This document shows, one piece after another, positions 41,965 through 43,743 of a stretch of 64,000 bases of DNA. The stretch is from Curvularia clavata (lineage: Eukaryota), in assembly GCA_023920165.1 (NCBI GenBank), contig CP089277.1, positions 1,922,001-1,986,000 of the forward strand. Direction: 5' to 3'. The stretch's first letter is position 1, and the number at the start of each line of letters is the position of its first letter. Both the position numbers and the translations under genes were made by a program. The notes under the pieces are model-generated. The model was given only the letters and a program-made list of their open reading frames with translations, was not told where the DNA came from and did no database searches.

Positions 41965-42423
41965 TGAAAAGCACTGTCGCTCTCATTTCATTTGCCTGGC
42001 CGTCCAAGCCAAGGCCAGCGCCCAAGTCAGTCACGCCCCTGATTGTCTAGCTGCGAAATATAGAAGAGCTACAACCCTCCTGGTGTGGATTCCTATTCCC
42101 ATCATCTTCACTCTCTTCCAGCTATCTACACTCATTCCTCACCCCCAGTCTACTGCTAGCCAGTCCACTGGAAACGCGACGCCGCCTAATCAAAGCCGTC
42201 CTTCGCCCCGTCACTACGCACGCTTATACGCGCTCGCCGCCCTTAACACATTCTCTCGTCGGTTCTATCCATCCAAGCCCGACTCCTAGCACAGGCCAAT
42301 TGTTCAGCCCTCGCTGACAAGCTGTATTCCCCAATTGGTATGTCTTGCTGCACCTGTCTACGTGACACGCTTGGCCACTATGGCGCTAACGCCTATAAAG
42401 CACACGACACACTCGTCAACACC

Positions 42424-42519
42424 ATGATCCTCAGAACACCAGAGTCCTTCAACATGGGCAGAGGGGCCTATGATACTACTGGCACCCCCAAACCGACGCC
42501 CCCGCAGCCCCCCAAATGA
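42424..42519 (+). CDS. Small ORF gene, 31-aa peptide MILRTPESFNMGRGAYDTTGTPKPTPPQPPK
   Basis: 5'UTR intron 42338-42400 (GTATGT/GCTAAC/AAG). caccATG at 42424 and in-frame caacATG at 42454. Downstream intron 42654-42711 (GTAAGT/GCTGAC/CAG). Confidence 0.7.
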   Translation: MILRTPESFNMGRGAYDTTGTPKPTPPQPPK

Positions 42520-43743
42520 GCCCAATCGTCATGCCGTCCCAACCGACCATTGCTTTTCGATACATGCTTTTTGATCGATCGCATTGACGCCCTGCAATCG
42601 ATCCACGGGCACCATGGTGTGGTTGGGACCAGAGGGACAGCACGTTGCGCATCGTAAGTACTGCCCGTTTCGAATTCTCACTGTTACACAGTGGCTGACA
42701 TTCCATCACAGTCTTACTTCCACTGCTCGCCGACGCCATTACGACCGAGCAGCCCGCTGGTTTCACAGCGCTTTTGCTTCTCCGAGCTTTATCGAGATTA
42801 CGCCCTTTTAATCATCCGCAATCCTTCCGATTCTTGCAGCAACCTAATACCCCCTCGGCCTTTTACGGTTTCAGTTCCGCGTTATCGAGCAACTCGTACA
42901 CCTCTTCTCACCACGTTCAGCGACACTTTCTTACGGCAAAAAGTACTCTCTTCCTTTTCACACGGCGTTTCTTATAGACAAGGTTGGGCCCAGGCATAGA
43001 TACCAAAAACGGATTTTGGCTTTTTTTTCTTTCTTTTTTCTTCTTGTTGTTAGCCCCTTCACTGCGGGCAGCATAAAACGGGTAGAGAGATGTCCATGGC
43101 CTGCCTTCACTGGCACACCCAGGCATGGACTGTATTGTACTATAGCGCGTTGGGTTTGGGATCGCGGCATCTGCCAGCGTTGCGACGATTTTGCGTTCCC
43201 TGCAACGCTCTTGACGAAGGGCATGTTTTAGCCGCTACCCATGGTTTTGGATTTTAGACAGTGTCTGGGCCTTGGTATTCGGTGTCTCGCGACACCACTG
43301 GCATCAGTTAGACTAATCAACATTGTACTACTACTACACACTACTACCACCTGGCTACCTGAATAGTGGATGCGGTGATGACCTGGCCTGCGGTATGATG
43401 ATGTGTTCGACCCGCGCCAGCGGAACCCGATTTCCCCCCTGCCCATGCAAGCAAAACAGCGGCCGATGCCATGTCGTCGAGGCCTGACGCTGTCTTTTGC
43501 TGTGCTGTGTAGTTGGTGGCTGCCACGCGTGGCCCAAAGAGTGGAGACGTGGCGACTGCACCCCACGAAGTCGGCGTCCCGATTTGCGTCCAGCTCACCG
43601 CAGCTCCACCACCGCCAGCGCGACCTCTTTGCTGTATCGTCAAACACCGCCATTTACACGCCCACGCCCAACCCCCATTCCCGTCCTCCCAACTCCAAGC
43701 CCCCCGTCTTCCATCTCGGCCGCAGCCGCTGCAGCTTCCCACC

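Follow-up and report, generated by a model that had tools for sequence, protein, structure and literature searches.

A conserved 31-codon reading frame beside ARC15 in Curvularia clavata and its probable micropeptide gene

The short open reading frame and its conservation

The DNA analysed here is a stretch of 64,000 nucleotides (nt) from the fungus Curvularia clavata (assembly GCA_023920165.1, contig CP089277.1, positions 1,922,001 to 1,986,000 of the forward strand), referred to below as the window. Within it we examined a region of the + strand at 42060-43330, upstream of ARC15, in which an earlier note made from the letters alone had proposed a hidden two-intron gene for a 31-residue micropeptide. 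At its centre lies a short open reading frame (sORF) of 31 codons plus TGA, at 42424-42519 (stop codon at 42517-42519). It begins at ATG1 (42424-42426, context caccATG) and contains a second in-frame start codon, ATG2 (42454-42456, context caacATG). The sORF is preceded by a pyrimidine-rich leader with a predicted intron (intron 1, 42338-42400) and followed by a second predicted intron (intron 2, 42654-42711) and by a long conserved region that forms the proposed exon 3 (42712-43330, 3' end approximate), within which a T-rich tract can be read near 43018-43050. All of the coordinates in the note were borne out when the letters of the window were read again. Judged by comparison with related loci, the 31-codon open reading frame (ORF) is a conserved coding sequence under strong purifying selection.

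Taken by themselves, the signals in the window are not beyond chance. Its two strands hold 12 intron-like motifs, against 7.2 ± 3.1 in 200 shuffles, and to find two of them on the same strand within 1.5 kb (P = 0.0023 per stretch) is not rare across 64 kb. The feature is called real because of its comparison with related loci, not because of the window signals alone. The queries were the 90-residue stop-to-stop frame that holds the sORF and a 45-residue stretch of the same frame. Metagenome contigs were scanned with a back-translated DTTGTPKP pattern, and tblastn confirmed at least 32 loci of 595 pattern matches; the 33 sequences compared below are the window and the 32 metagenome loci among the matches listed. 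Every metagenome match covers residues of the sORF itself and not the leader or intron parts of the 90-residue query. By sequence comparison the window is close to Bipolaris and Pyrenophora, and the most divergent locus that includes ARC15 is L021 (nearest named sequences from Dothideomycetes). Two loci, L002 and L004, follow L001 at 99% identity as far as a point within intron 2, beyond which they diverge, and L002 further on repeats sequence from upstream of the gene; we regard both contigs as chimeric or rearranged.

The ORF is intact in start, frame and stop, over 29-34 codons, in all 33 sequences, which between them encode 22 distinct peptides. Each peptide consists of a core, NMGRGAYDTTGTPKP, followed by a basic tail rich in Pro and Lys. 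Across the peptides M1, I2, M11, R13, G14 and the run Y16-P24 are invariant. The tail varies in length and ends in K, KRR, SK or KKQ, and in every one of the 22 the residues before the stop are either 4-7 consecutive prolines or rich in Pro and Lys. A PxxP or poly-Pro motif, as in proline-rich ligands of the SH3 or profilin type, is visible in the peptides of Dothideomycetes, and KPKP-type tails occur in other lineages. By eye, a hydrophobic signal sequence is absent from all 22.

The 15-codon core occurs in 25 distinct DNA versions, 22 of which encode an identical NMGRGAYDTTGTPKP. The proportions of synonymous (pS) and nonsynonymous (pN) sites that differ within it are 0.656 and 0.012, which gives a pN/pS of 0.018; in the two shifted frames pN/pS is 27 and 4. 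The third position varies in 14 of the 15 codons, the first in 2 and the second in 3, and synonymous sites are saturated across the lineages compared. As the part of the core that corresponds to DTTGTPKP is biased by the retrieval pattern, the selection test was redone outside it: the seven codons NMGRGAY, which lie outside the search pattern, gave a pN/pS of 0.04, and codons 1-10 gave 0.37, as against 0.95 and 1.18 in the other two frames. In the flanks the ratio is 1.03 over the 30 nt before ATG1 and 0.94 over the 30 nt past the stop. Taken together, these values indicate that amino-acid constraint starts at ATG1 and stops at the stop codon. The codon-level conservation in relatives on which the earlier note had staked its proposal is strongly present, and with the intact ORF, the low pN/pS in a single frame and the position of ATG1 as the apparent first AUG (see below) it supports a real micropeptide gene. 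The argument from codons that end in C, as in highly expressed genes, did not survive. Only 13 of the 29 sense codons other than ATG end in C, and with this count, with third positions that vary freely and with a C-rich strand at the locus (GC skew -0.2 to -0.375), the argument from codon bias is weak.

Leader, introns and the conserved 3' region

Intron 1 is predicted to lie in the 5' untranslated region (UTR) and measures 63 nt. It consists of a GTATGT donor, a GCTAAC branch site and an AAG acceptor, and because the acceptor is not the usual YAG it was missed by a strict intron scan that required one. The description of this intron as a textbook case needs correction as to the acceptor. In 21 of the 22 lineages examined, an AG acceptor lies 14-32 nt ahead of ATG1, with a CTRAC branch site and a donor before it, and the introns so defined measure 28-101 nt under a loose donor rule. 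Two NCBI gene models of Bipolaris sorokiniana (P0004 and P0005) splice the intron 1 junction exactly as predicted. Straight after the branch site (window 42393-42398) and about 30 nt before ATG1, many lineages carry the word TATAAA(G), which is conserved beyond any apparent need of splicing; it may be an internal TATA box for a short transcript starting near ATG1.

The leader is marked by a lack of ATGs. Exon 1 is placed at 42060-42337 (start approximate), and 42066-42337 is pyrimidine-rich and holds no ATG. In the spliced leaders of 21 lineages there are 3 ATGs where 36.4 are expected, i.e. a depletion of about 12-fold. Counted upstream of the intron 1 donor across 20 lineages, the observed and expected numbers are 1 and 15.7 at 0-100 nt, 1 and 15.4 at 100-200 nt and 4 and 13.6 at 200-300 nt. 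At 300-400 nt the depletion is gone (17 against 20.6), and still further upstream there is none (34 against 39.7). Nor are ATGs depleted inside intron 1 (12 against 17.3), and they were called not depleted past the sORF stop (34 against 24.8 and 92 against 134.8). The extent of the depletion would place the 5' end of the transcript near 42040-42140 and make ATG1 its first AUG, and the lack of depletion past the stop suggests that ribosomes are not meant to scan on to ARC15. From the conserved signals we infer a leader of about 250-300 nt that is free of AUG and contains a 5'UTR intron. Two blocks in it are conserved (42102-42121 and 42164-42193). The TATA-like word AATATAGAA of the earlier note is indeed present at 42057-42065, but outside the window it is common only to the nearest relatives, L001 and L007.

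Intron 2 (58 nt) begins 134 nt past the stop and would therefore lie in the 3'UTR; it has a GTAAGT donor, a GCTGAC branch site and a CAG acceptor. As the earlier reading had it, there is a second intron downstream of the stop: a GTRAGT donor is found 163-309 nt past ATG2 in 27 of the 33 sequences, and the donor, a CTGACTAAC branch region, a TGCAG acceptor and an exon block just before the donor are aligned and conserved. In all aligned lineages this intron begins more than 100 nt past the stop.

Conservation continues far beyond the ORF. Over about 800 nt more than 10 blocks are nearly invariant across lineages (42988-43295 and, more widely, 42712-43570), and when 16 lineages are aligned, from 400 nt ahead of ATG2 as far as the ARC15 ATG, over a dozen such blocks appear in fixed order and with fixed spacing. 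Several of these motifs recur even in the most distant loci. The blocks include CCTAATACC (42843), CGGCGTT (42963), GATACCAAAAA (42999), TTGTACTATAG (43135), which is a UGUA-type site resembling a PUF site, GTGTCTCGCGACAC (43282-43295) and TTAGACTAATC (43308), all on the + strand, and they run on to 43549-43571, some 170 nt short of the ARC15 ATG. Most lineages keep the near-palindrome GTGTCTCGCGACAC, with G.U and compensatory variants, and it could be either (i) an RNA hairpin or (ii) a site for a dimeric factor in the ARC15 promoter. The word (C)AGCGAC is repeated within the conserved 3' blocks.

Part of this region appears to be structured. RNAalifold applied to 12 well-aligned lineages (42944-43334) gave a consensus of 28 pairs, 9 of which change on both sides; shuffled alignments gave 4.0 ± 1.4 such changes, and 1 of 500 reached 9. 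Paired cells amount to 91.7%, as against 88.0% in the shuffles, and the covariation score is 0.206, as against 0.143; none of the 500 shuffles reached either observed value. With partners slid, the score falls to 0.03-0.08. A hairpin with compensatory base changes at 43094-43128 (+) comprises helices 3 and 4 of the consensus, and in helix 3 half of the 8 pairs change on both sides (e.g. CG:9/UA:2, AU:6/GC:3 and UA:3/GC:2/UG:2/AU:1/CG:1). A long-range helix spans 42988-43270, where 42988-42995 pairs with 43263-43270; its main helix of 7 pairs has 91.7% of its cells paired and shows G.U pairs on the + strand. The whole structure contains 20 G.U cells and 4 A.C cells, and this ratio favours the + strand as the one that folds. 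These observations suggest a conserved, partly structured 3' region that carries a 3'UTR intron.

The region resembles no RNA family that we searched for. Rfam gave 0 matches at E ≤ 1 in the window at 40500-45000 and in 9 loci (46,064 bases). A telomerase RNA was rejected, as no template is conserved among the relatives: telomere-repeat 8-mers on the + strand within 2.5 kb of the sORF occur in none of 32 loci and in the window only (603 nt upstream), and L001 has one on the minus strand. Readings of the intron 2 blocks and of the hairpin as C/D or H/ACA small nucleolar RNAs were dropped by eye, there being no terminal stem and, in the window, no block inside the intron. Extra sORFs downstream were dropped as well, since the conserved blocks hold no ATG common to all lineages.

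The peptide family and the neighbourhood of ARC15

A profile of the 22 peptides was run against 1.84 billion representative sequences and gave 203 matches at E ≤ 1e-3, 50 of them at E ≤ 1e-10. For further analysis we took 161 core-bearing proteins, made up of the listed profile matches, word-search matches and some cluster members. Of these, 132 end within 20 residues past YDTT and 12 are no longer than 40 residues. A single core is present in 151, and 10 hold 2-3 copies of it within one ORF; proteins with multiple copies of the core, GRGxYDT(T/S)G, include P0133, P0137, P0146, P0187, P0211, P0217, P0247 and P0265, with Xylaria arbuscula and Annulohypoxylon nitens (Xylariales) as named examples. 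At the position of ATG2, 119 of the 161 proteins have Met, 32 have Phe and 10 have some other residue. The suggested second isoform of 21 residues, starting at ATG2, is not a conserved feature of the family, given this count and the constraint on codons 1-10.

Stand-alone gene models that belong to the family by profile and core are Sordaria macrospora SMACR_12796 (33 residues), Colletotrichum tanaceti CTA1_1554 (32 residues) and Sclerotinia sclerotiorum XP_001593046.1 (a predicted protein of 37 residues), and a member of 32 residues is found in Colletotrichum abscissum. Longer models that share the core are Bipolaris sorokiniana COCSADRAFT_193287 and Cercospora beticola CB0940_01023. Other named members come from Monilinia, Pseudogymnoascus, Cytospora, Thermothelomyces, Parascedosporium, Neopestalotiopsis, Xylaria, Annulohypoxylon and Stagonosporopsis. 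On these names the family spans at least the Dothideomycetes, Sordariomycetes and Leotiomycetes. The five models given above with identifiers are all labelled hypothetical, predicted or uncharacterised. The expectation that automated annotation would miss the gene is right in the main, as it is mostly missed or buried in spurious longer models, but a few genomes do list it as a hypothetical protein of 30-37 residues. The N-terminal extensions of the Bipolaris and Cercospora models (120-230 residues) are not conserved and, being unrelated between the annotated proteins, look like artefacts of choosing the longest ORF. In the window an ATG-to-stop ORF of 127 codons at 41907-42289 overlaps the promoter and leader of the sORF gene, and the B. 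sorokiniana model GGP41_000934 (260 residues) takes in a homologue of it.

As the earlier note had it, the peptide belongs to no named family. Pfam gave 0 families at E ≤ 1 for 11 members, and a profile search of the PDB gave 0 chains at E ≤ 10. There was no usable match to the peptide in the ESM Atlas, and AlphaFold2 predicted no fold for it (predicted local distance difference test, pLDDT, 71; predicted template modelling score, pTM, 0.23). A search of the main texts of papers found none on the peptide string or on eight locus tags of members, and the locus is not mentioned in the main text and 10 supplement files of a proteogenomic study of Sordaria (PMC6794485). The family is new and unnamed: a conserved gene for a micropeptide, with RNA features that are unusual and likewise conserved.

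The next recognised gene downstream is ARC15 (ARPC5, p16-Arc), the first exons of which lie at 43744-44420 (+; Pfam P16-Arc, E = 2.2e-15 and 4.3e-9). The position of the gene upstream of ARC15, which the earlier note had wanted examined for synteny, recurs in relatives: of the 22 loci that extend at least 1.4 kb downstream, 21 have ARC15 there on the same strand, and the exception is L002, which is rearranged or chimeric. ATG2 and the ARC15 ATG are 1182-1344 nt apart in 19 of 21 loci, the window having 1290 nt. In the aligned lineages no further conserved ORF lies between the sORF stop and ARC15, and extended ARC15 protein models do not contain the peptide. Many full-length ARC15 proteins of 186-191 residues stem from contigs of only 0.9-1.4 kb. 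As the ARC15 gene has introns, these contigs look like cDNA, and as they are too short to hold the sORF, the sORF gene would be a transcription unit separate from ARC15. A MARVEL-like gene at 47392-48082 (-; a weak Pfam match, E = 0.0084, below the cut-off) is also syntenic downstream of ARC15 in 8 loci, so the linkage of the sORF to ARC15 is partly ordinary microsynteny.

On the other side, Pfam recognises no gene between an AAA-ATPase gene at 34692-36579 (+) and ARC15, and the 4.7 kb or so upstream of the sORF gene (37300-42050) are without any Pfam-recognised ORF. Two segments of this stretch, 38310-39846 and 41813-42047, are conserved in several frames and on both strands in the nearest relatives (subsets of L001, L002, L004, L005, L007 and L008). 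They may represent a further unannotated gene or non-coding DNA that has been conserved. At 41518-41560 lies a (GGT)n microsatellite of about 12 units.

Possible modes of action and their significance

With moderate confidence we read 42060-43330 (+) as a real, unnamed gene of filamentous ascomycetes that encodes a trans-acting linear-motif peptide, is controlled post-transcriptionally and forms a unit apart from ARC15. According to this proposal, RNA polymerase II would produce a spliced transcript with an AUG-free leader, a 5'UTR intron, the 31-codon ORF, a 3'UTR intron and a conserved, partly structured 3' region of at least about 600 nt. The product under selection would be the peptide made from the first AUG, with its invariant core NMGRGAYDTTGTPKP and its basic Pro/Lys-rich tail, and the peptide would work in trans, as a short linear motif that binds a conserved partner in the cell. 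That the peptide itself is the functional product, and acts in trans, is suggested by the repetition of the core within single ORFs, the invariant Met-Ile start and the absence of a predicted fold. The level of the peptide would be set post-transcriptionally through the 3'UTR intron (by decay of the nonsense-mediated type, NMD), the PUF-like site and RNA structure, and the gene would have been kept beside ARC15 in Dothideomycetes as a separate unit. We infer the trans action, the partner and the mode of regulation.

Several points weigh against this proposal. Transcription, splicing and translation are deduced from conservation and from gene models made by others. The loci were retrieved by a pattern, which by its nature would miss any orthologous locus where the ORF has been lost. 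Synteny with ARC15 was seen only with the GTPKP form of the core, the identified members of which are Dothideomycetes. The near-constant spacing of about 1.2-1.3 kb to ARC15, together with a Pro-rich end prone to stalling, also fits a cis-regulatory role, and some conserved blocks, e.g. 43282-43295, could belong, as DNA elements, to the promoter of ARC15. The RNA structure was derived from the same 12 sequences that were used to test it, and RNAalifold gave no consensus structure on an alignment of 19 sequences.

The most substantial of the alternatives, which we regard as possible yet doubtful, is that the sORF acts in cis, i.e. that the nascent peptide and its Pro/Lys-rich end slow or stall the ribosome (possibly in an eIF5A-dependent manner) and that the RNA is the effector, controlling itself via NMD or an exposed 3' domain and perhaps also the transcription or translation of ARC15. 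Runs of proline need eIF5A for their translation, and 3'UTR introns trigger NMD in fungi. Such a mechanism would account for the C-terminal two thirds of the peptide being far more conserved than codons 1-10, for the Pro run or Pro/Lys stretch before the stop of every distinct peptide, for the conserved intron more than 100 nt past that stop, for the conserved blocks and helices downstream and for the regular distance to the ARC15 ATG. However, two or three cores in one ORF, as in 10 of the 161 proteins, would be puzzling in an arrest peptide. In addition, M1 and I2 are invariant, the last residues and the tail length vary, and no conserved main ORF follows in the proposed transcript, where ATGs are not depleted past the stop. 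The constant spacing and the shared strand in 21 of 22 informative loci might instead mean that the sORF is an upstream ORF (uORF) in a long ARC15 leader or the first cistron of a bicistronic sORF-ARC15 transcript, and the conserved blocks that reach to about 170 nt before the ARC15 ATG could be taken the same way. We consider this improbable, as about 1.2 kb with many ATGs separates the two ORFs, the ARC15 contigs that look like cDNA have no room for the sORF, the NCBI models of Bipolaris and Cercospora give the sORF locus a gene of its own, and the synteny of the MARVEL-like gene makes the linkage partly a matter of ordinary microsynteny.

The proteins with several cores, and the KRR or K that follows the core in many lineages, would also be expected of the precursor of a secreted peptide that is processed or modified in the manner of a pheromone, of a Kex2-processed repeat protein or of a ribosomally synthesised and post-translationally modified peptide (RiPP), with the repeats and the basic C-terminal residues serving as processing sites. 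This is even less likely: no peptide has a visible signal sequence, the core occurs just once in 151 of the 161 motif-bearing proteins, and the gene lies beside housekeeping genes, with no biosynthetic gene in the neighbourhood scanned. Moreover, the core hardly varies from class to class, whereas known fungal RiPPs have cores that change fast. Least likely of all is that there is no gene, and that the ORF and the intron motifs arose by chance in intergenic DNA or belong to a non-coding RNA. Intron-like motifs are indeed common by chance in the window, and a 31-codon ORF is trivial in GC-rich DNA, but this explanation is already contradicted by substitutions with a period of three that give a low pN/pS in one frame only, by the start and stop conserved in all 33 sequences, by the ATG-depleted leader and by the 203 representatives found with the profile. 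Each of the last three alternatives, i.e. the uORF or first cistron, the secreted precursor and the chance feature, is in our view unlikely.

A further idea goes beyond the proposal of a trans-acting peptide, and we put it forward as a speculation that is rather unlikely to hold in full. The gene could specify a bifunctional RNA, ancient in filamentous ascomycetes, that combines a peptide of about 30 residues, nearly invariant in at least three classes, with a conserved, structured 3' domain, the whole forming a module tied to ARC15 and to Arp2/3-dependent actin assembly. In such a scheme the peptide might, for example, be a proline-rich ligand of an actin-patch protein, gated by pausing at the Pro run and by NMD.

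Known systems offer partial parallels. In Drosophila, tarsal-less (polished rice) is a gene for micropeptides encoded by small ORFs that share a short invariant core. The fungal gene is like it in having a tiny ORF, a peptide that is under selection and otherwise free around a short, nearly invariant core, a core that occurs once or several times per transcript, and a history of being missed or mis-modelled by annotation pipelines. It differs in that the repeats lie within one ORF and not in separate ORFs, and in its two introns and conserved, partly structured 3' region; the likeness is one of features, and no sequence kinship is claimed. The arginine attenuator peptide class (arg-2/CPA1) comprises fungal arrest-peptide uORFs that lie shortly upstream of the main ORF on the same mRNA. 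These too have 20-35 codons and amino acids conserved across fungal classes, and they begin at the first AUG on the mRNA, as the sORF is predicted to do; however, no conserved main ORF follows the sORF, ATGs downstream are not depleted, and some family members repeat the core. Finally, some fungal mRNAs are controlled via 3'UTR introns and NMD, as is reported from work on Neurospora. The predicted sORF transcript resembles them in the conserved position of an intron more than 100 nt past the stop, although the known cases encode proteins of ordinary size, and for the sORF transcript the link to NMD is a proposed one.

Conserved micropeptides are rare and, to our knowledge, almost none in fungi has been given a function. 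That the core is identical in 22 of its 25 DNA versions in spite of saturated synonymous sites implies an important partner or mechanism. As the gene is missed or buried in most annotations, it has probably gone unnoticed in proteomic and knockout screens, and the three classes over which the family extends include many crop pathogens and laboratory models. The AUG-free spliced leader, the 3'UTR intron, the structured 3' region and the fixed spacing to ARC15 would together make a compact system for the control of a micropeptide mRNA, and the same linked features bear on whether the RNA does more than encode the peptide.

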